Translations under genes and position numbers: made by a program
Shown here: positions 37,827-51,025 of the stretch, one piece after another
How positions within the stretch are numbered: position 1 is the first letter of the stretch
Layout: each line of letters begins with the position of its first letter
Notes under the pieces: generated by a model
The model's database searches: none
Told to the model about the DNA's origin: nothing
The model's input: the letters and a program-made list of their open reading frames with translations, nothing else
Source: Alistipes sp.
GTDB taxonomy: Bacteria > Bacteroidota > Bacteroidia > Bacteroidales > Rikenellaceae
Length of the DNA: 64,000 nt
NCBI GenBank assembly: GCA_017621455.1
Contig: JAGATC010000017.1
Location: 113,172-177,171 of the forward strand
Direction: 5' to 3'

Positions 37827-37886
37827 AATTACAAATCATTTACTGCTTAATATTCAATATTGTACACACAACGTCCACATAAATAA

Positions 37887-38119
37887 TTACGCACAAAAAA
37901 AAGCGCGGGACAATTAGTTATATTCCCGCTCAGAGGTGTTTGGCGTAACCCGACAGAATAATACAACAAAAAGCCCACGCTATACAGCGCGAGCATTCCA
38001 ACTATTATTCCTTCTGTCTATTAGTCGCCAAACTTCCTGAGCAGCAGAATAAAGCTAAAACGCTTTTCCAATATGTCTAAAATGTGCGTATCAACTATAC
38101 GCTATGCTTCATAGGCAAT
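37887..38119 (-). ncRNA. Putative structured 5' leader RNA with terminator, family B copy 1
   Basis: ~235-nt repeat of 47771-48004; nested stems with compensatory changes; ends GCGGGA..TCCCGC-GC-T8. Confidence 0.65.
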
Positions 38120-42991: not shown

Positions 42992-44401
42992 TTAGTGCGT
43001 AAAGACCTTACCCATCTGTCTCTCTTGGCGCTCATACTGTAGGCGCGAGTTGGTGGGATAGGTGAGCTTGTCGAGCTCCTTGGCAGCATCCTCAATATCG
43101 CGCAGAAGCATATCGGCCATATCTCGTGACATGCCTTGGCGCACAACAATACGCATAACGACCATATCCTCAATGCTCTTAGGCATGGAGTAGGCGGGCA
43201 CCATCCAGCCACTCTGCTGCAGGCGCGCCTGTAGGTCGTACAACGTCCACTTAGCACTCTTGTCGTAGCCTGCCCTCATCGTCCAGACAAAGAGCGGGTT
43301 AACCACCTCCTTTGCGTAGTTCTCGAAGTATGGCATAGCACCTATGCGCTCGTGGCAGTAGCGGGCAATCTCCATGGAGTTGCGGTGCACGTTCTCATAG
43401 CCCTTGCGGCCGAGGCGGATAAAGTTGTAGTATTGTCCAAGTATCTGCGCTGCGGGGCGCGAGAAGTTGAGGCCCACCTGCGTAACCTCCGCACCGAGGT
43501 AGTTCACCGAGAAGCTCATCTCCTCGGGCAGATAGCTCTTATCGCGCCATACCACCCAGCCGAGACCAGGATATACCAGGCCGAACTTATGTCCCGAGGT
43601 AGAGATAGACACCACCCACTTTAGCCTAAAGTCCCACTTCGTGTCGGGGCTGACAAAGGGGAGAATAAAGCCTCCTGAGGCTGCATCCACATGAATAGGG
43701 ATGTTGTAGCCCGTGCGCTTATTGTAGTCGTCCAACGCCTTATCTAAGGCCTCCACATCATCGTTAAGGCCAGTCCACGTAACGCCCGCAATGGCGACAA
43801 CGGCAATGGTGTTCTCGTCGCACATCTTCAGCGCGTCGTCGGTGCATAGCGTGCGCTTCTCACGCGTGAGGGGCACCTGGCGCAGCTCTATCTGCCATAG
43901 CTTGCAGAACTTCTCCCACACGACTTGTAGGCCAGTGCTTATGACAAGGTTGGGCTTATCGGTGGGCTTGCCCTCCTTCTCGCGGCGATGACGCCAGCGG
44001 AGCCATGCGGCGACACCACCAAGCATGCAGGCCTCCGAGGAGCCTATGCCCACGGCACCCGTCATCGACTCGCTCTTCTCGGGGCTGTGCCAGAGGTTGG
44101 CGATGATGTTGATGCAGCGCGAGGCCATAACGGCAACACGCGGATACTCCGTCTGGTCGATGTAGTTGATGGCGATAGCCTCGTTCATAAGACGCGTGGC
44201 GTGGTCGTCCATATAGGTTGTCACAAATGTTGCGAGGTTAAGCTGTGGATTGGTCTCCACCATGGCCTCATCCTTAACCATGCGGTAGGCAATCTCGGGC
44301 ATGGTCATCTCCTCGGGGATTGTTGTTGTAGGCGCGGGGCGAAGCATCTCCTCCGACCCGTAGACGGCAGCTGTTGCCGTAGAGCATCGTTTTTCGTTCA
44401 T
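42992..44401 (-). CDS. gadB: Glutamate decarboxylase
   Basis: NLATFVTTYMD, NYIDQTEYP, IHVDAASGGF, SGHK(PLP)FGLVYPG, LNFSRP; start taken at MNEKR. Confidence 0.93.
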   Translation of the reverse strand: MNEKRCSTATAAVYGSEEMLRPAPTTTIPEEMTMPEIAYRMVKDEAMVETNPQLNLATFVTTYMDDHATRLMNEAIAINYIDQTEYPRVAVMASRCINIIANLWHSPEKSESMTGAVGIGSSEACMLGGVAAWLRWRHRREKEGKPTDKPNLVISTGLQVVWEKFCKLWQIELRQVPLTREKRTLCTDDALKMCDENTIAVVAIAGVTWTGLNDDVEALDKALDDYNKRTGYNIPIHVDAASGGFILPFVSPDTKWDFRLKWVVSISTSGHKFGLVYPGLGWVVWRDKSYLPEEMSFSVNYLGAEVTQVGLNFSRPAAQILGQYYNFIRLGRKGYENVHRNSMEIARYCHERIGAMPYFENYAKEVVNPLFVWTMRAGYDKSAKWTLYDLQARLQQSGWMVPAYSMPKSIEDMVVMRIVVRQGMSRDMADMLLRDIEDAAKELDKLTYPTNSRLQYERQERQMGKVFTH

Positions 44402-44517
44402 AATAGTGTAAAATTTAAGTGTTATACAACGCCTCCGACCGACACAAACCATGCCACCCGCAATGCTAGAATTATGCTGCGGGGTACCTCTTTAGTTAAT
44501 ATAAAACATATACAATT

Positions 44518-44889
44518 ATGAAACGGCTGTTTACAATCTTTACTATAACACTTGCGCTACTAACCATTGATTATGCCTCTGCGGCAGATTCAACAACGGC
44601 TGATAACACCATAGATAAGACCGAAATCACAGGTCGTGTGAGTGCAAACGACTGCCACATTATCGCCTATGATGCTACCAAAGGTGAGAAAATTATAGTA
44701 GAACTATATGGCGATGGCGATACAGACCTCGCACTATATGTCTACGATAAGGAGGAAAGGCTAATTGTGGATGATGAACTCAGCGATGATGGCACCTATG
44801 GTTGGACGGCAGAGTATACAGGTAAGTATTATATTGTTGTAAAGAATCAAGGTGACGTGTATAACGAATTTAGGATGGTTATCCAGTAG
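44518..44889 (+). CDS. Small secreted protein with pre-peptidase C-terminal (PPC)-like domain
   Basis: Signal peptide; GDGDTDLALYVYD and TGKYYIVVKN motifs. Confidence 0.6.
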   Translation: MKRLFTIFTITLALLTIDYASAADSTTADNTIDKTEITGRVSANDCHIIAYDATKGEKIIVELYGDGDTDLALYVYDKEERLIVDDELSDDGTYGWTAEYTGKYYIVVKNQGDVYNEFRMVIQ

Positions 44890-45073
44890 CCCCACGACTG
44901 GTTATTATTTTCCATACGATAAAATAGTGGCCTATTTATCGCAAAATAGATAGATGCAAACAATTTTATTTTACACTCAATCGTTATATTGGCACGAGTA
45001 TTGCAAAAGACTCTGACAGCTACGTTGGCAACGAGACAACGTAGTTAGGTTTCTTCATTTATTTAAGTTTGGG

Positions 45074-45798
45074 TTAGTAGTTTTTACAGAATTTGTTTCT
45101 GGAAGGCGAGCGGCAGTCGTGAGACTCCCGCTCGTTCTTTTTTATGACAAATTCTGTAAAAACTATGACTGCTCCCGCGGCGTGGCAGAGTAACCTGCGA
45201 GTTTGTATGATAGTTTGGCGTATTGCTACGCAATAAGCGTGGTTGTGCCGTAGGTCTTTTGCAAACAAGTTCACATAGACCAACGACACAACCACACACG
45301 TCTTCGTCGTCGCCAAACCATCATACCTCCTCTTGCTCTGCGCAAACCTTAAGGAGAGTTAGTAGTTTGTTAAAGGTGTTACGCTGCGCTCCACAAAAGT
45401 ATTAATAGAATTTGTTTCTGGAGAATAGGCGGCAGTTGTGAAACTCCCGCCTATTTCTTTTGTTTATTTCTGTAAAAACTATGACGATTCGGTGGCGGCT
45501 CGGATGACTTATCTTGTGTATTGTGTGGCAAAGATGCTATGCATCCAATGTGTCTGCTTTGACACCAAGCACCTCATATAAATATGGCTGACTTGTTGCC
45601 AAATCAGCCACACATCTACGATGTTGCGCCACACAACACCCTGCGGTCACCTCTCGCCTGCTGCGAACGTTAGTAGTTTTGGCGTGCTACCCCGCTGGTC
45701 GTGCGTAGCACAAACAGTTGTCCTATGAAATAGTTTTTTACAGAATTTGTTTCTGGAAGGCGAGCGGCAGTCGTGAGACTCCCGCTCGTTCTTTTTTT
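45074..45798. repeat. Non-coding mosaic of interrelated structured repeats
   Basis: Core GAATTTGTTTCTGGA at 45089, 45408 and 45743, each followed by a GCGGCAGT.GTGA.ACTCCCGC hairpin; family-B-like stem at 45205-45326. Confidence 0.8.
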
Positions 45799-46950
45799 TT
45801 ATTCCTTTTCATTTATTGTATATAGTATATCATGCAGATAGTCAAATATCATTTGTTTACTTTGACATAGATGGTCGACCTCACTAATATTTTGTCCTTC
45901 ACTAGCGATGAAAGAGTGGTATGGACACCCTCCATTACAAATATAAAAGTATCCACATTTGTTTTGTGCACACTTGTTTATAGCCTCTACTCTTTGATCT
46001 ATTAACTCGCACATTTTTTTTGATTCCACGGATAATAACTCCAAAAGAGTAGACTGCTGAATATTTCCCAACATCATATTATCAGAACCAGTAAATTTGG
46101 GACACAAATAGGCATCTCCATTTGGAGTTAACGCAACAAAATTAGTCAAACACCTACCGCCATATGTACAAATGGTATCGCTAATAGGTGCTTGTTTTTG
46201 CAGACATTTAATAATGTCATACACAGTTCTAGGCACTGGTGAAATTTTTCCTCGCTCAACCCAGGCATTAAATTCAGATATAAAGTATCTCGCTACATCT
46301 TCTTTTGACAATGCAATGCTATTATCTTTGACATTATTCTTTTCATAGTATATATATGGATTACTATGAAAAGAATTCACCTCAAGTTGTTGAAAACACT
46401 CAAGCATCTCATTTTCAAACCCCAAATTATTTTTTGTGATAGTACTAATAAAACCGCAAGACGCTCCTTTATCTCGAATATAATTCATCGTTTTAACAAC
46501 AGCATCATACGAACCTTGATTAGTGTTGGTTGGTCGATTCTGATTGTGAATTGTACGAGTGCCATCTATGGTTGTTGATATTGAAAATTCATTCTCTATC
46601 AAAAAATCAATAAGTCCAGGATCAAAAAGATTACCACTTGTTTGGACACAATTTTCATATGGTTTAGTTGAGTGTTTCTTCTGGAGTTCAATAACATTCT
46701 CAAAGAAATATTTGCCAACCAAAAGAGGCTCTCCTCCAGTCCATTCAAAAACTACATAACTATGATTTGTTTGAAATGCTTGGTATATGGCCTGATCTAA
46801 CAACTCTATTGGGAATGTTATAGGCTTACCATTATGCGTTCCTTTGGCGAAACAATATTTGCACGAAAGAACACATTTATCCGTAAGTTGAAAGATAACA
46901 TTTAATGTATTACACTCTCTTAATCGTGAGATATATTCGGTTCGCAACAT
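45799..46950 (-). CDS. Radical SAM/SPASM domain protein, putative peptide maturase
   Basis: CVLSCKYC (CxxxCxxC), WTGGEPLL, STTIDG; SPASM cysteines CTYGGRC..GDAYLC..CAQNKCGYFYICNGGCP..HLC; start taken at MLRTEY. Confidence 0.92.
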   Translation of the reverse strand: MLRTEYISRLRECNTLNVIFQLTDKCVLSCKYCFAKGTHNGKPITFPIELLDQAIYQAFQTNHSYVVFEWTGGEPLLVGKYFFENVIELQKKHSTKPYENCVQTSGNLFDPGLIDFLIENEFSISTTIDGTRTIHNQNRPTNTNQGSYDAVVKTMNYIRDKGASCGFISTITKNNLGFENEMLECFQQLEVNSFHSNPYIYYEKNNVKDNSIALSKEDVARYFISEFNAWVERGKISPVPRTVYDIIKCLQKQAPISDTICTYGGRCLTNFVALTPNGDAYLCPKFTGSDNMMLGNIQQSTLLELLSVESKKMCELIDQRVEAINKCAQNKCGYFYICNGGCPYHSFIASEGQNISEVDHLCQSKQMIFDYLHDILYTINEKE

Positions 46951-46969
46951 ATAGGTAATATTAAAAATA

Positions 46970-46998
46970 GGGGGCGATTTCATACAACAATCGCCCCT
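46970..46998 (-). terminator. Stem-loop/partial terminator between precursor and rSAM genes
   Basis: GGGGCGATT/AATCGCCCC stem followed by TATTTTT on the minus strand. Confidence 0.65.
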
Positions 46999-47067
46999 TG
47001 TTGTCATTTAGAAAACATTAATTGCTCTTATACATCTTCCTGCAACACTCTTTCTGGATTATATAGA

Positions 47068-47538
47068 TTAGTTACATTCGTAATAAGAATCCCTATTTGA
47101 ATGTTTATCTGTGTGGTGTTTATTTCCAGAATTAGTGTGACTTTGAACAGGATTTCTATTTGTATGCCTATCAGAATGAGGATCACAAAATTCAACCCTT
47201 TCCTGAGTTCCATCATCCTTCGTTACCCACTTATAGCTACTCTTGGCGTTAGTATTACTGTGGCTGTCTGAATGATTTGTATTAGCATGATGGTCAGCGT
47301 GATTATTACCAATGTTTGTGTGCACATCTGAATGAACCATTAATCCAGATTCGGAAGTATAATTACTATGTAATGGACTTATCAGATCAATAACTTCATT
47401 TTTACAAACTTCCATTATATCTTGTTCTGGCACCTGCAGCATAGTGGGTTCCGCTGCATTCGCAGCTGAGATTGATAACACACTTGCAGGTATTGTAATG
47501 CCTAATTTTATAGCAATTTCTTTTGCGCTCTTTTTCAT
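47068..47538 (-). CDS. His-rich repeat protein, putative RiPP precursor (H-x-D-x-H-x-N repeats)
   Basis: Signal-like leader ending AANA-A; 12 H-[STA]-[DN] motifs; lies directly upstream of the rSAM/SPASM gene. Confidence 0.8.
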   Translation of the reverse strand: MKKSAKEIAIKLGITIPASVLSISAANAAEPTMLQVPEQDIMEVCKNEVIDLISPLHSNYTSESGLMVHSDVHTNIGNNHADHHANTNHSDSHSNTNAKSSYKWVTKDDGTQERVEFCDPHSDRHTNRNPVQSHTNSGNKHHTDKHSNRDSYYECN

Positions 47539-47550
47539 AGTTATCAAATA

Positions 47551-47703
47551 TTAGTCATCAAACACACTTTCATCTCCAGTTAGTCCATAATTGTATCCAT
47601 CCCAAAATGCCTCATACTCCTCAGGTGTACAAGATGTTGTCAATAGACATATAGACACTGATAAAATGATTACAAAGAACATTGATTTTATTAACTTTTT
47701 CAT
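47551..47703 (-). CDS. 50-aa small lipoprotein (not in ORF track)
   Basis: Hand translation MKKLIKSMFFVIILSVSICLLTTS-CTPEEYEAFWDGYNYGLTGDESVFDD*; AT-rich run before the ATG; stop 12 nt before the precursor ATG. Confidence 0.7.
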   Translation of the reverse strand: MKKLIKSMFFVIILSVSICLLTTSCTPEEYEAFWDGYNYGLTGDESVFDD

Positions 47704-47770
47704 AATTAAAGTTAGGATACCAAATCATTTTTGCTCAATTCAATCCCGTTACTCCAATCTCATCTCACTT

Positions 47771-48004
47771 TTACGCACAAAAAAAGCGCGGGACAATTAG
47801 TTATATTCCCACTTCGAGGTGTTTGGCGTAACCCAGGTAGATGAATAACTAAAAGCCCGCACCGAATAGTGCGAGCATTTCAACTATTATTCCCATCTAC
47901 CTTTTTTAGTCGCCAAACTTCCGAAGTGATAGAATAAAGCTAAAACGCTTTTCCAATATGTCTAAAATGTGCGTATTAACTATACGCTATGCTTCATAGG
48001 CAAT
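47771..48004 (-). ncRNA. Putative structured 5' leader RNA with terminator, family B copy 2
   Basis: Repeat of 37887-38119 with compensatory stem changes; ends GTGGGA..TCCCGC-GC-T7. Confidence 0.65.
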
Positions 48005-48080
48005 ATCTCTTTAAGTGATTTACAAAATTCATGTCGGCCCTAAATACCATCAATACACTGCATATTTCACAATGATAGTA

Positions 48081-48112
48081 CAAATATACGAATTTCTTAT
48101 GCAAAAACCAAA
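48081..48112 (-). promoter_or_regulatory. Promoter upstream of leader B2 / RiPP operon
   Basis: Minus strand TTTG-N20-TATATTTG. Confidence 0.7.
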
Positions 48113-48197
48113 TGTTTACCCACCATAATTTGTTTCTGGAGAGGGAGTGTGGATATATAAAATAACAAACCGTCAAGATAACTTAACGGTTTGAATT

Positions 48198-48800
48198 TTA
48201 TAGACGCTCCTTTATGATTTTTGCCCATTCGGGAATTGGTCCACTGTACTCCTTCGCGACTTTGCCTTCGACTGTTCTAAATAGTGGTCGAGCATCGCAA
48301 TTCTCTGCCGAGTTATCGTAGAGATAGCAACGATCGACTACACGGGCTACCTCAACACAATTAGCGATAGATAGATTGTAGCGTGAGATAATTTTAGATA
48401 TTGGCACATCGTGACCACCTTGCATAACTCGTCGAGCAATACGCGATGCATTTATCGTGGGAGACTCCGTGCACACAAAGAACACCCTAACAAAGAATCC
48501 AGCCGCCTTTGCTCTACGGATATAATCGACCTTATCTTTACGCGAAAGTACCGTTTCGAAGATAAGACTCTTACCCTCAGCAAGAGATTTCTCGCGCAAC
48601 GCCTCACAGTAAGCGATAGACTTCTTAACAGCCTCCGCCGAGTTCCAATCACCAAATTGCTCTTGTGCAACGATATCAGGATTGATATATATAGCATCCT
48701 CCATCCACTCGTGACGCAAGATCTGTTCTGTCACAGTCGTTTTGCCCGACCCGTTGGGCCCAGCGATAACTATCAAAACAGGTTTGTGATTATTTACCAT
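48198..48800 (-). CDS. Zeta-toxin-like/AAA_33 P-loop protein
   Basis: AGPNGSGKT Walker A, YINPD, FETVLS, RVMQGGHDVP, LYDNS; start taken at MVNNHK. Confidence 0.85.
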   Translation of the reverse strand: MVNNHKPVLIVIAGPNGSGKTTVTEQILRHEWMEDAIYINPDIVAQEQFGDWNSAEAVKKSIAYCEALREKSLAEGKSLIFETVLSRKDKVDYIRRAKAAGFFVRVFFVCTESPTINASRIARRVMQGGHDVPISKIISRYNLSIANCVEVARVVDRCYLYDNSAENCDARPLFRTVEGKVAKEYSGPIPEWAKIIKERL

Positions 48801-48987
48801 CGCTACAAGTGTACTCTGCCAAATTGTCCGACACCAACTGCTCCAACTCGGCGCGGAATTTTGCCTCAACCTCGGCACCACGACGACGAGCCTCCTCGCC
48901 CGCTGCGTGCATCAAGGCTTCAAGCTGTTCATCTGTAGGCTCTTCAATACCAGTGAGACGATATTTCTTTAACTCTTGCTCCGACAT
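48790..48987 (-). CDS. Small helical protein, putative antitoxin
   Basis: 65 aa (EEPTDEQLEALM); overlaps the start of the P-loop gene; own promoter TTTG-N20-TAACTTTG containing an ATTATT/AATAAT palindrome. Confidence 0.6.
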   Translation of the reverse strand: MSEQELKKYRLTGIEEPTDEQLEALMHAAGEEARRRGAEVEAKFRAELEQLVSDNLAEYTCSDGK

Positions 48988-49070
48988 AATGAGAATCATT
49001 GGTTTCTGCAAAGTTAGCAATTATTAAGCAATAATACAAAACTCGCTCTATTTTTATTGCTCGGGAGTTT

Positions 49071-49161
49071 TCTTGCTCTGCGCAAACCTTAAAGAACGTT
49101 AGTAGTTTATAAAAGGTGTTACGCTGCGCTCCACAAAAGAGTTAATGAATTTGTTTCTGGA
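49071..49161. repeat. ~92-bp direct repeat of 45331-45422
   Basis: About 8 differences in 92 nt by manual alignment; ends in the GAATTTGTTTCTGGA core. Confidence 0.85.
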
Positions 49162-49167
49162 AGGCAG

Positions 49168-50055
49168 TTAATACCTTACCTTAAAATAGTCGAGTACCGC
49201 TTTGTAGTTATCTTGTGCCGTTAGGCAGGTATCGCGCAGATACTCCTTAATGCGAGGCCACTCACGCAGACCACGATAGTAGAACATTTTTAGTTCATCG
49301 GTGATGATAAATGGCACATGGCCATTTGCCAGGCACTCCTTGAACATCACAAGGCGGCCTACACGACCATTGCCATCCTGGAATGGGTGTATCGCCTCGA
49401 AACGCTGATGCAGGTCGATAATATCCTCGAATGACTTTCGCTTCTTGCCGTTATACTCCTTGAAGAGTGCCTTTATCTCACGATGTACATCTTCGGGTGC
49501 GGTGGTCTCGTTGCCACCCACCTCGTTAGGGAGACGTTTATAGTCGCCAACGGTAAACCAATCCTTGCGACTATCCGAAGTGCCCATCTTTAGCGTCGAG
49601 TGCAACTCCTTGATAAGGCTCTCGGTAAGTCGCTCCTCTGCTCGGTCGATAATAAGGTCGATGCAACGGAAGTGATTAGTAGTCTCGATGATATCATCCA
49701 CACGCACGCTCTCACCCTCGATGCCAATAGTATTGGTCTCGAAGATGTAGCGTGTCTGGTCGTGTGTCAGACGACTGCCCTCGATATGGTTGGAGTTATA
49801 TGTAAGGTCGATTTGTGTCTTGTGATAGATGCCACCTTTGAGCTTCGCTTCCTTCTCTTGGCGCAGAACAACAAGCAATGGCATCGCCTTGCGCTGCCGA
49901 GGCTTACGCCCTGGCAACTCCGCATCGGCAGGGATGTTCCACGTCTTACCCACAAGGGTTGCGCCCTCAATCTTTCCGAGAGCACAATAATTACGCGCTG
50001 TACGCTCCGAGACGCCATACTTGGCAGCAAAATCTGTTACTGAAATATACTTCAT
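49168..50055 (-). CDS. HTH + Fic family protein
   Basis: N-terminal HTH (VSERTARNYC); HPFQDGNGRVGR Fic motif. Confidence 0.92.
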   Translation of the reverse strand: MKYISVTDFAAKYGVSERTARNYCALGKIEGATLVGKTWNIPADAELPGRKPRQRKAMPLLVVLRQEKEAKLKGGIYHKTQIDLTYNSNHIEGSRLTHDQTRYIFETNTIGIEGESVRVDDIIETTNHFRCIDLIIDRAEERLTESLIKELHSTLKMGTSDSRKDWFTVGDYKRLPNEVGGNETTAPEDVHREIKALFKEYNGKKRKSFEDIIDLHQRFEAIHPFQDGNGRVGRLVMFKECLANGHVPFIITDELKMFYYRGLREWPRIKEYLRDTCLTAQDNYKAVLDYFKVRY

Positions 50056-50311
50056 ACGCTACGACTATCGGCAAGTTTAAGGCCGATTACTCGATGCAAA
50101 TATAGCAATTCTTGCCGATAACGGCAAATTAATCCTGTGTTTTCAATGATTTATTTACCTCATTATATCTTTCCCTTATAGCGCCATAAGAATATATGAT
50201 TAATGATTTTAACCAAAAACACTTGTGCTTTTATTTTTTATTTATACTTTTGCATCGGAATAATATTTGATTATACCGTAAGCAAACAAAATAAATAAAA
50301 GATATACTACT

Positions 50312-50902
50312 ATGAACATTAGAACAAAGAGCTGCTGCTGCAGCGCGAACAAGCAGAAGTCAATCTACGATTTTGAGGTAATGGCAATGGGAGGCAAGAG
50401 TGTTAGCCTCGCAGACTACAAGGGTAAGGTATTGCTTATCGTAAACACCGCGAGCAAGTGTGGCTTCACACCACAGTATGCCGACCTTGAGGCTATCAAC
50501 AAGCGTTTTGCCGACAAGGGTCTTGCCATCCTCGACTTCCCCTGCAACCAGTTTGGCAACCAGTCACCCGAGAGCGATGCCGAGACTGTGCAGTTCTGCC
50601 AGCTAAACTACGGCACCACCTTCCCACAGTTCAAGAAGCTCGAGGTGAATGGCGAGAATGAGGCGCCGCTCTACACATGGCTTAAGGGCCAGAAGGGCTT
50701 TGCGGGCTTCGACAAGGATCACACCCTCACACCCATCCTCGAGAAGATGCTCGCGGAGGCCGACCCCGACTACGCATCGAAGGCCGACATCAAGTGGAAT
50801 TTTACCAAGTTTCTCGTTGACCGCGAGGGTAACGTCGTTGCGCGCTTCGAGCCCACAGCGCCGATGGAGAGCGTGGCAAGCGCCATCGAGGGCCTGCTAT
50901 AG
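50312..50902 (+). CDS. Glutathione peroxidase family (Cys type)
   Basis: NTASKCGFTPQY, FPCNQFG, WNFTKFL. Confidence 0.95.
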   Translation: MNIRTKSCCCSANKQKSIYDFEVMAMGGKSVSLADYKGKVLLIVNTASKCGFTPQYADLEAINKRFADKGLAILDFPCNQFGNQSPESDAETVQFCQLNYGTTFPQFKKLEVNGENEAPLYTWLKGQKGFAGFDKDHTLTPILEKMLAEADPDYASKADIKWNFTKFLVDREGNVVARFEPTAPMESVASAIEGLL

Positions 50903-51025
50903 TGGTTGCATAACACATACAACAAGTGCCGTTGGAGCTATCTCCGACGGCACTTGTTGTATTGGCATAGACGCTCTCCGCACCACATAAAAAAAAGAAA
51001 AGCGGCAACCTAAGTTACCGCCTTG

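Follow-up and report, generated by a model that had tools for sequence, protein, structure and literature searches.

The question raised by this locus is what reaction a single radical SAM enzyme with a SPASM domain might carry out on the histidine-rich, apparently exported protein encoded next to it. Both genes lie in a stretch of 64,000 nucleotides from a gut Bacteroidales bacterium (Alistipes sp., contig JAGATC010000017.1), referred to below as the window. The histidine-rich protein, the putative precursor, contains 14 histidines, 12 of which are found in H-x-[DN] triplets, with S, T or A as the middle residue in all twelve cases. This recount agrees with the preliminary description of the locus, as do the five heptads (HSDVHTN, HADHHAN, HSDSHSN, HSDRHTN and HTDKHSN) and the KWVTKDDGTQERVEFC spacer listed there. 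When the mature part was shuffled 100,000 times, 2.8 motifs were obtained on average and 10 at most, never twelve.

Among 69 distinct precursors, which together contain 627 histidines, 51% of these histidines have Asn at +2 and 37% have Asp (88% together), whereas just 67% have Thr or Ser at +1; another His is found at +4 in 41%. This difference indicates that the His and the Asp/Asn are the selected positions, and as a sequence pattern they resemble the aromatic-x-x motif of triceptides. Members of the family measure 105–170 residues, carry 4–13 HxD/N repeats, and are predicted to yield a net acidic product (median charge -4). No match to NCBIfam, Pfam or PADLOC models was found for the precursor. 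Its two conserved Cys residues were considered as the target of the enzyme and rejected, as several family members are devoid of cysteine.

At the N-terminus, basic residues are followed by LGITIPASVLSISAANA/AE (the slash marks the putative cleavage site), which looks like a Sec signal. The same succession of a basic part, a hydrophobic part and a small-x-small motif is retained in 63 of the 69 relatives, with a median of three K/R residues preceding a stretch of 16 residues with a mean hydropathy of +1.5, so that the earlier assignment of a Sec-like signal holds as far as its layout is concerned. The leader reads KEIAIKLGITIPASVLSISAANA, followed by NEVI; across phyla L12, G13 and P17 never vary and N47 hardly does, a degree of conservation that appears to exceed the needs of a plain signal peptide. 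The product is probably an exported protein of about 128 residues rather than a short peptide, and no protease is conserved with the precursor.

Homologues of the enzyme were collected at 21 loci (19 from genomes and 2 from metagenomes), with identities of 80–37%, from several phyla: Bacteroidales, Chlorobiales, Elusimicrobiales, Rhizomicrobium and Deltaproteobacteria are represented. At each of the 21 an ORF with HxD/N repeats adjoins the enzyme gene on the same strand, and hence the check proposed at the outset, whether the neighbours of enzyme homologues share the motif, gave a positive answer throughout. All-against-all clustering of the loci showed that only the precursor and enzyme families are conserved; a third conserved gene, be it for a protease, an exporter, an RRE or an HxsD-like protein, was found at none of the 21 loci. 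At the locus itself the ORF list and a neighbour scan likewise confirmed that no protease, ABC exporter or RRE gene is adjacent. Sequence comparison thus supports a conserved enzyme-substrate pair. In the NCBIfam and Pfam scans neither protein attained the cut-off of a curated family, consistent with the initial impression that the pair is not characterised, and the motif is indeed distinct from HxS. A literature search on His-Asn, His-Asp, HxN and HxD crosslinks and on His-rich radical SAM precursors returned nothing on the HxD/N family, and the system is not mentioned in a paper on RiPP mining in Bacteroidales (PMC10352776). The pairing is an uncharacterised one that recurs across several phyla.

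The two genes form a self-contained cassette of 2,383 bp that is horizontally mobile; its features are collected in Table 1.

Table 1. Features of the two-gene cassette and its boundaries, in window coordinates.
Feature	Position	Strand	Remarks
14-nt core AATTTGTTTCTGGA	48127..48140	+	Upstream cassette boundary; end of the preceding toxin-antitoxin cassette
Structured leader RNA, ~235 nt	47768..48004	-	Heads the operon
50-aa lipoprotein-like ORF	47551..47703	-	Signal sequence; Cys at position 25
Precursor, 156 aa from ATG	47068..47538	-	Signal-like leader, 12 H-x-[DN], two conserved Cys
GC-rich hairpin, 9 bp, then U-rich run	46971..46997	-	Between precursor and enzyme genes
Putative radical SAM/SPASM maturase, 383 aa from conserved Met	45799..46950	-	ORF open up to 47007
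63-nt repeat	45735..45797	+	Downstream cassette boundary; 14-nt core at 45744-45757, GC hairpin with T-run

Within the enzyme ORF the conserved start is the ATG at 46950, not position 47007. The stem-loop noted earlier behind the precursor gene was found again, with arms GGGGCGAUU/AAUCGCCCC and the U-rich run after them; by analogy with other RiPP operons it is probably a leaky terminator or an attenuator that sets the precursor-to-enzyme ratio. The 50-residue ORF is an optional part of the cassette, as a homologue is present only in the closest (L003) of the 20 other loci compared, and it was rejected as a core component.

Five copies of the 14-nt core are found in the window, all of them within 45090-49161, with a chance expectation of 0, and only seven genome-wide. 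The 63-nt repeat occurs in three copies, at 45081, 45400 and 45735. Junctions that differ from strain to strain fall within the core, and others in the 63-nt repeat; in loci L045 and L047 the order of the toxin-antitoxin cassette and the radical SAM cassette is swapped relative to the window, again with junctions in the core. The cassette thus changes position between strains via recombination at the 14-nt core. A core at each cassette boundary together with reshuffling between strains is a trait of the integron type; no recombinase was identified among the array-flanking ORFs scanned against Pfam (ORFs up to about 52.8 kb), and a tRNA scan gave no hits. In the window the cassette adjoins candidate defence-type genes. 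A consistent neighbourhood in other species was looked for and rejected, as the flanking genes are in some cases housekeeping ones (pheT, ffh, rmlD) and in others conflict-related (AbiEi, CdiA_C, DUF4143, YhcG).

The leader RNA is conserved more strongly than the genes it precedes: its DNA is 79–81% identical to that of other genera, compared to about 67% for the coding parts. Changes on both sides were seen in 23 of the 43 predicted pairs, and many G-U pairs fit the gene strand only. A search of Rfam in E-value mode (44000-51000) gave no match at the leader or at the repeats, while our model of the leader, R1, has hits in 98 of the 301 Bacteroidales genomes sampled; the leader is an uncatalogued RNA with a wide distribution in this order. 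Sixteen other copies were inspected, and in 12 of them it is located upstream of genes for small signal-peptide proteins. The mobile cassette, the defence-flavoured array and this conserved structured leader had all been missed in the preliminary description.

The enzyme scores above the cut-off for PF04055 and for the TIGR04085 SPASM domain, and its CX3CX2C motif and eight further invariant C-terminal cysteines make up a full SPASM set, as had been noted from the sequence at first sight; an RRE is absent. Its structure model (pLDDT 87) superimposes equally well on anSME and on the triceptide maturase ChlB (TM 0.78 in both cases), and the epimerase EpeE is also among its fold matches. Of the NCBIfam models for characterised peptide maturases, that of the dynobactin enzyme DynA (NF041298) scores best, with 175 bits against a cut-off of 450, while NF038005 and NF041300 give 101 and 112 bits (cut-off 650). 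The enzyme fails to reach the cut-off of any curated triceptide maturase family, i.e. GrrM/OscB (87 bits, cut-off 310), YhhB (79, 445), FxsB (50, 370) and AmcB (95, 425). PADLOC returned only weak generic matches to viperin (radical SAM core).

By analogy with characterised triceptide maturases we lean, with moderate confidence, towards triceptide-type rings from His to Cβ of Asp/Asn; they would be made in the cytoplasm before Sec export, in a protein that then acts outside the cytoplasm. We infer the following sequence of events, from bond formation through export to function. The N-terminus of the precursor would be a Sec-type signal and probably also a leader for docking of the enzyme, through the conserved motifs LG[IV]x[IV]P and NEV[IV]. 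Before export, the cytoplasmic enzyme would travel along the unfolded precursor chain and abstract a hydrogen from the Asp/Asn Cβ at each His-x-Asp/Asn triplet. The Cβ radical would then attack the imidazole ring of the His located two positions before it, C2 being the most likely site, and each of the resulting three-residue rings, up to 12 in the 156-residue precursor, would cost 2 Da. The stapled protein would be exported by Sec, with the signal cut after ANA, and outside the cytoplasm would present a rigid, acidic imidazole array. A first guess for its role is metal binding, the alternative being defence or competition; the metal-binding or antimicrobial role put forward at first may be read in the same way.

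The ring reading is favoured by the pairing, the motif, the SPASM enzyme class, the fold match to ChlB, the conserved residues of the leader and chemical precedent. Rings from His C2 to Cβ have been proven on HAA, HNR, HTK and HAS (PMC11499958, PMC11002830, PMC12912966), and Asn/Asp Cβ is a proven acceptor for XncB, OscB and YxdB. Both halves of the bond are thus precedented, and the His-to-Asp/Asn combination is without precedent. With regard to the preliminary description, it should be added that three-residue rings of His were already known with these other third residues. Export is favoured because the signal layout is kept, no exporter or protease is conserved, and the leader RNA heads genes for signal-peptide proteins. 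On the other hand, the ring reading is weakened by the scores far below the curated triceptide cut-offs and the closer sequence relationship to anSME, and by the fact that characterised triceptides are all short and released by a protease, none of which is encoded here. Moreover, the HXS system, discussed below, shows +8 Da in its last repeat and not a ring per repeat, and the Thr/Ser found at 67% of middle positions may point to a second or a different modification. Twelve rings may also hinder transport by Sec.

Of the other explanations, the one that survives best keeps the same enzyme and substrate with different chemistry: modification of a few sites with N-terminal processing, as in HXS, a link from His nitrogen to Cβ, as made by DynA, or epimerisation, the remaining repeats being left unmodified. 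We regard it as unlikely, though still to be reckoned with. HxsA has five HxS repeats, of which only the last carries a mapped modification, and a non-canonical N-terminal cleavage is part of its maturation. The dynobactin enzyme, whose model scores best among those of characterised peptide maturases, makes two kinds of link, C-C and C-N, the latter between a His nitrogen and Cβ; SPASM-type peptide epimerases, such as EpeE, also exist. However, every His-x-Asp/Asn triplet is conserved in the present family, not one alone. HXS requires two radical SAM enzymes and HxsD where a single enzyme is conserved here, and the match to the HxsB model is confined to the N-terminal half of this enzyme (102 bits, cut-off 370).

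Decidedly less probable is a dehydrogenation of the anSME type, in which oxidation of the middle Ser/Thr would give formylglycine or a keto residue, in the way that anaerobic sulfatase maturases treat Sec-exported sulfatases. In a third of the motifs the middle position is taken by a residue that has no hydroxyl group, such as Ala, Val or Gly, whereas the His and the Asp/Asn are kept in 88–100%, and a C/S-x-P/A-x-R sulfatase motif is lacking. What recommends this reading, apart from the 67% of middle residues that are Ser or Thr, is that anSME is the top match by sequence (4K36 and 4K37 are among the matches), by profile (TIGR03942) and by fold, and that the genome holds no other anSME above the cut-off. 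Furthermore, anSME has no RRE either and acts on Sec substrates that are still unfolded in the cytoplasm. The profile score of 176.8 bits is nevertheless only half of the curated cut-off of 349. In addition, the enzyme has an invariant C294-P295-K296, whose Pro aligns with D277 of anSMEcpe; this Asp, which follows the third Aux-I Cys, is said to have been proposed as the catalytic base by Goldman and co-workers in 2013. In view of the score, the absence of this Asp and the constant pairing with the precursor, the enzyme was also rejected as the housekeeping sulfatase maturase of this genome. Finally, that the His-rich protein is no substrate at all, and merely an ordinary periplasmic metal binder co-transcribed with an unrelated radical SAM enzyme, is very improbable: His/Asp/Asn-rich exported proteins do bind metals unmodified and the link between enzyme and precursor is a prediction from sequence, but the two genes are strictly adjacent at all 21 loci, in several phyla and with no third gene conserved, they travel as a single cassette, the leader has invariant residues beyond those a signal peptide needs, and the substrates of SPASM enzymes in this clade are peptides or proteins.

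If the proposed rings are formed, a new crosslink, His to Asp/Asn, would be added to the repertoire of radical SAM enzymes, and we know of no ribosomal product stapled as densely as this one would be, with up to 12–13 rings. Rings on a full-size, Sec-exported protein would moreover blur the border between RiPPs and protein maturation, in a compact two-gene system whose rigid poly-imidazole scaffold might be put to use in metal binding. The setting, a moving cassette in a defence-flavoured array under a leader RNA present in a third of the sampled Bacteroidales genomes, raises the questions how such cassettes recombine and what the leader senses. A more far-reaching possibility, which we consider doubtful, is that of a minimal one-enzyme counterpart of HXS: a stapled His-repeat protein exported to the periplasm as a defence (antiphage) or competition effector, encoded in an integron-like array that has no integrase close by, and switched by a structured leader RNA that would represent a new class.

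Among known systems, the triceptide maturases (XncB, OscB, MscB, YxdB, HaaB, YhhB, HtkB, MicB and ChlB) share with the present enzyme a SPASM radical SAM architecture of about 380 residues without an RRE, and act on repeated aromatic-x-x triplets, with His as a proven donor, Asn/Asp Cβ as a proven acceptor and, in ChlB, a matching fold. The present system differs in falling below all curated models, in its unreported His-x-Asp/Asn combination, in placing up to 13 motifs on a protein of 105–170 residues instead of a short core, and in its Sec-like leader, with no protease or exporter alongside the pair. The dynobactin/darobactin maturases (DynA, DarE, DarW) also make aromatic-to-Cβ links, one of them from His; unlike the HxD/N proteins, their precursors are short, with one C-terminal core, and have dedicated exporters. 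With anSME (PDB 4K36-4K39), which acts before Sec export, the enzyme shares its domain layout and two auxiliary clusters in addition to the best sequence and fold match, whereas its score, the invariant Pro and a partner that is no sulfatase set it apart. Bufferins, which are RiPPs modified by MNIO enzymes, use a Sec signal peptide in place of an exporter and bind copper in the periplasm (PMC11626156); they provide a precedent for the proposed export route and metal role, with the difference that an MNIO and not a radical SAM enzyme is involved and that the chemistry is on Cys and not on His.

The closest system in logic is HXS (HxsA-D; TIGR03976-03979), now characterised as a periplasmic antiphage system (Li et al., Nat Commun 2026, PMC13128918), a status that the preliminary description did not take into account. 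In HXS a His-x-small protein with a signal peptide is matured by cytoplasmic radical SAM chemistry and acts in the periplasm; it involves two radical SAM enzymes and HxsD, a peptidoglycan-binding domain, five basic HxS repeats and a mass change of +8 Da at one site (PMC13128918). The HxD/N system has one radical SAM enzyme, neither HxsD nor a peptidoglycan-binding domain, 4–13 repeats and a net acidic product, and the HxsA (TIGR03979) and HxsB models are unmatched. Common to both is a signal-peptide protein with His-x-small repeats coupled to radical SAM chemistry, and the present cassette is likewise found among defence-type genes, a likeness of logic and not of homology.

The 156-residue His-repeat precursor and the adjoining SPASM radical-SAM (rSAM) enzyme are present as the preliminary description had them, and together they constitute an enzyme-substrate system that is genuine, conserved and uncharacterised. 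When one genome per species was scanned, 19 enzyme loci (80–37% identity) were identified, in Alistipes, Rikenellaceae, Tannerella, Prevotellaceae, other Bacteroidales, Chlorobiales, Elusimicrobiales, Rhizomicrobium and Deltaproteobacteria. The idea that neighbours of enzyme homologues might share the precursor motif held throughout: in 19 of 19 loci, and in two metagenome loci, an adjoining ORF on the same strand contains 4–11 H-x-[D/N] motifs; this ORF precedes the enzyme gene everywhere except at a single locus, where it is downstream. The enzyme has 307 relatives, mostly from Bacteroidales. Only seven precursor relatives were found in a word-indexed search of 5.8 billion proteins, with all His and Asp/Asn columns conserved. 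A profile of 20 precursors matched only 49 precursor clusters among 1.84 billion representatives, indicating a real but rare family, and the rSAM unit (leader RNA, 50-residue ORF, precursor and enzyme) occurs in only one of 151 sampled Rikenellaceae genomes. A Bacteroidales-type pair (55% identity) on a 2.6-kb contig, assigned to a MAG with the label Lachnospiraceae, probably reflects erroneous binning rather than an occurrence in Firmicutes.

Features of the rSAM unit, its leader RNA and the surrounding cassettes (C14, another contig of the same genome)
Feature	Position	Strand	Remarks
Lipoprotein-like ORF, 50 aa	47703..47551	minus	ORF listing
Precursor ORF, 156 aa	47538..47068	minus	ORF listing; ATG at 47538
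9-bp GC-rich hairpin, then U-rich run	46971-46997		between precursor and enzyme genes
Enzyme ORF, 402 aa	47007..45799	minus	ORF listing
Structured leader RNA, ~235 nt	47768-48004	minus	upstream of operon
Leader RNA, second copy	37885-38118	minus	window
Lipoprotein-like ORF, 134 aa	37422-37826	minus	directly downstream of second leader RNA copy; no family match
Leader RNA, third copy	C14:84027-84261	plus	genome
Second leader-headed cassette	C14:84332-85563
Integron-like cassette array	45081-49165		between gpx and gadB; also C14:85630-85949
14-nt core copies	45090, 45409, 45744, 48127, 49148		window
Zeta-toxin-like kinase and small upstream partner (putative antitoxin)	48198-49020	minus
Fic/DOC protein with N-terminal HTH	49168-50055	minus	PADLOC PDC-S04 candidate defence family, 370 bits; SoFic

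The His motifs claimed for the precursor were borne out, since 12 of its 14 His residues are found in H-x-[D/N], with x always Ser, Thr or Ala; the five heptads, the KWVTKDDGTQERVEFC spacer and the N-terminus MKKSAKEIAIKLGITIPASVLSISAANA followed by AE are likewise present. When the mature precursor was shuffled 100,000 times, H-x-[D/N] occurred 2.8 times on average and at most 10 times, compared to the 12 observed. Among 627 His residues of 69 distinct precursors, Thr or Ser follows directly in 67%, the residue at +2 is Asn (51%) or Asp (37%) in most cases, and position +4 is again His in 41%. These frequencies identify His and the third residue as the selected positions of the motif, the pattern that marks the aromatic-x-x motif of triceptides. 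The precursor/rSAM region is an AT-rich island (GC 0.33–0.36, flanks about 0.55), and the post-leader part of the 69 precursors is net acidic (median charge −4). From Bacteroidales to Chlorobiales, L12, G13 and P17 of the leader are invariant, and N47 of an NEV[IV] motif is nearly so. The motif LG[IVL]x[IVL]P, found in 63 of 69 members, has a median of three Lys/Arg residues before it and lies within 16 residues whose mean hydropathy is +1.5; a small-x-small site usually comes after it. This leader is thus a putative Sec-type signal that may double as recognition leader for the enzyme. The HxD/N precursor of a Deltaproteobacteria MAG (L020:5488-5817), encoded downstream of its enzyme, has no LGIxIP signal-like leader, which suggests a family branch without export.

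A Met conserved among homologues corresponds to the ATG at 46950 and gives an enzyme of 383 residues; gene callers chose 383, 394 or 402 residues in other strains. The enzyme matches Radical_SAM in Pfam and the SPASM domain above cut-off in NCBIfam, where it reaches no curated cut-off of a functional family: anSME TIGR03942 (176.8 bits, cut-off 349), DynA (175.2, 450), PapB (116, 340), HxsB (102, 370), AmcB (95, 425), GrrM/OscB (87, 310), YhhB (79, 445) and FxsB (50, 370). An alignment of twenty homologues contains CX3CX2C and eight further invariant Cys residues. The AlphaFold model (pLDDT 87) is equally similar in fold to anSME and the triceptide synthase ChlB (TM 0.78 each), followed by CteB, TigE and SuiB. 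The enzyme lacks an N-terminal RRE.

Triceptide enzymes form a bond between an aromatic carbon and the Cβ at position i+2; proof of rings from His-C2 exists for HAA (HaaB, ScaB), HNR (YhhB), HTK (HtkB) and HAS (MicB), and XncB, OscB and YxdB use the Cβ of Asn or Asp as acceptor (PMC11499958, PMC11002830, PMC12912966). Literature searches found no report of His-x-Asn/Asp rings; hence each half of the proposed bond has precedent and the combination has none, nor is there one for so many motifs or for so large a substrate. The most likely mechanism, to which we give somewhat better than an even chance, is that the enzyme would make triceptide-type His-to-Cβ(Asp/Asn) rings on the precursor in the cytoplasm, after which Sec would export a multiply stapled acidic protein. 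It is possible, albeit unlikely, that the same pair carries out other chemistry, i.e. an HXS-like modification, an N-C link or epimerisation. The C-N link of dynobactin connects a His nitrogen to the Cβ of Tyr. A C-N link is also among the products of the dynobactin enzyme (PMC11002830). Neither precursor nor enzyme matched the Hxs models in NCBIfam and Pfam scans.

An anSME-like oxidation of the middle Ser/Thr of the motif is improbable. No other anSME above cut-off was found in the genome, which encodes one PF00884 protein, but the Asp after the third Aux-I Cys of anSMEcpe (D277) is replaced in the HMMER alignment by the invariant Pro of C294-P295-K296. This Asp was reportedly proposed as the catalytic base by Goldman et al. 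in 2013, and the Pro therefore argues against sulfatase-maturase chemistry. Least probable is the absence of any enzyme-substrate relationship: in all-against-all clustering of all ORFs of the enzyme loci the two proteins were the only real conserved families, with flanks varying from pheT, ffh and rmlD to AbiEi, CdiA_C, DUF4143 and YhcG.

The leader RNA upstream of the operon is 79–81% identical between genera, compared to about 67% for the genes. Changes on both sides occur in 23 of its 43 predicted pairs, and many G-U pairs are compatible with the gene strand only. It has no Rfam match; its covariance model matches 98 of 301 Bacteroidales genomes, frequently with several matches in each. 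As a rule, 55–100 nt separate it from a downstream gene whose product is a small exported protein or a lipoprotein; of 16 copies inspected, 12 have as their next ORF one for a small protein whose N-terminus is of the signal or lipoprotein type. With nhmmer the RNA was located, whole or partial, upstream of most Bacteroidales rSAM loci. The second leader-headed cassette encodes a 78-residue lipoprotein with DnaJ-like CxxCxGxG zinc-finger repeats, a 148-residue secreted protein and a 74-residue membrane protein. Several other leader-associated ORFs of relatives are likewise Cys- and His-rich, which hints at a metal theme.

The 14-nt core AATTTGTTTCTGGA has only seven copies in the genome. Five of them fall within 45090–49161 of the window, each with a minus-strand module immediately upstream. 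The modules ending in this core are Fic, antitoxin plus zeta toxin, the rSAM unit and two without ORFs. In contigs of other strains of the species, the same precursor lies between the same gpx and gadB genes, with differing module orders: Fic, rSAM unit, gadB; Fic, toxin-antitoxin, rSAM unit; Fic, 125-residue gene, toxin-antitoxin, rSAM unit; and Fic, rSAM unit, toxin-antitoxin, 125-residue gene. The junctions are located in the core, and the rSAM unit is therefore a mobile cassette of 2,383 bp. The Fic/DOC gene is the first cassette in every strain seen; the zeta-toxin pair, whose small partner has no family match, is a 1.0-kb cassette of its own, which some strains have ahead of the rSAM cassette and others behind it. 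No recombinase was found among the array-flanking ORFs scanned against Pfam.

As a first guess, the product may serve in metal binding; a role in defence is the more novel possibility, albeit a doubtful one. In its logic, the closest system is HXS, characterised in 2026, in which two rSAMs and HxsD carry out a maturation whose steps include processing of the N-terminus and a change of +8 Da in one of the repeats, and the matured product stops phage DNA entry from the periplasm (PMC13128918). The logic is common to both systems, but the parts are not: the present system has one rSAM and no HxsD, it has no counterpart of the PG-binding domain of HXS, and its precursor product is acidic, whereas HxsA is basic.
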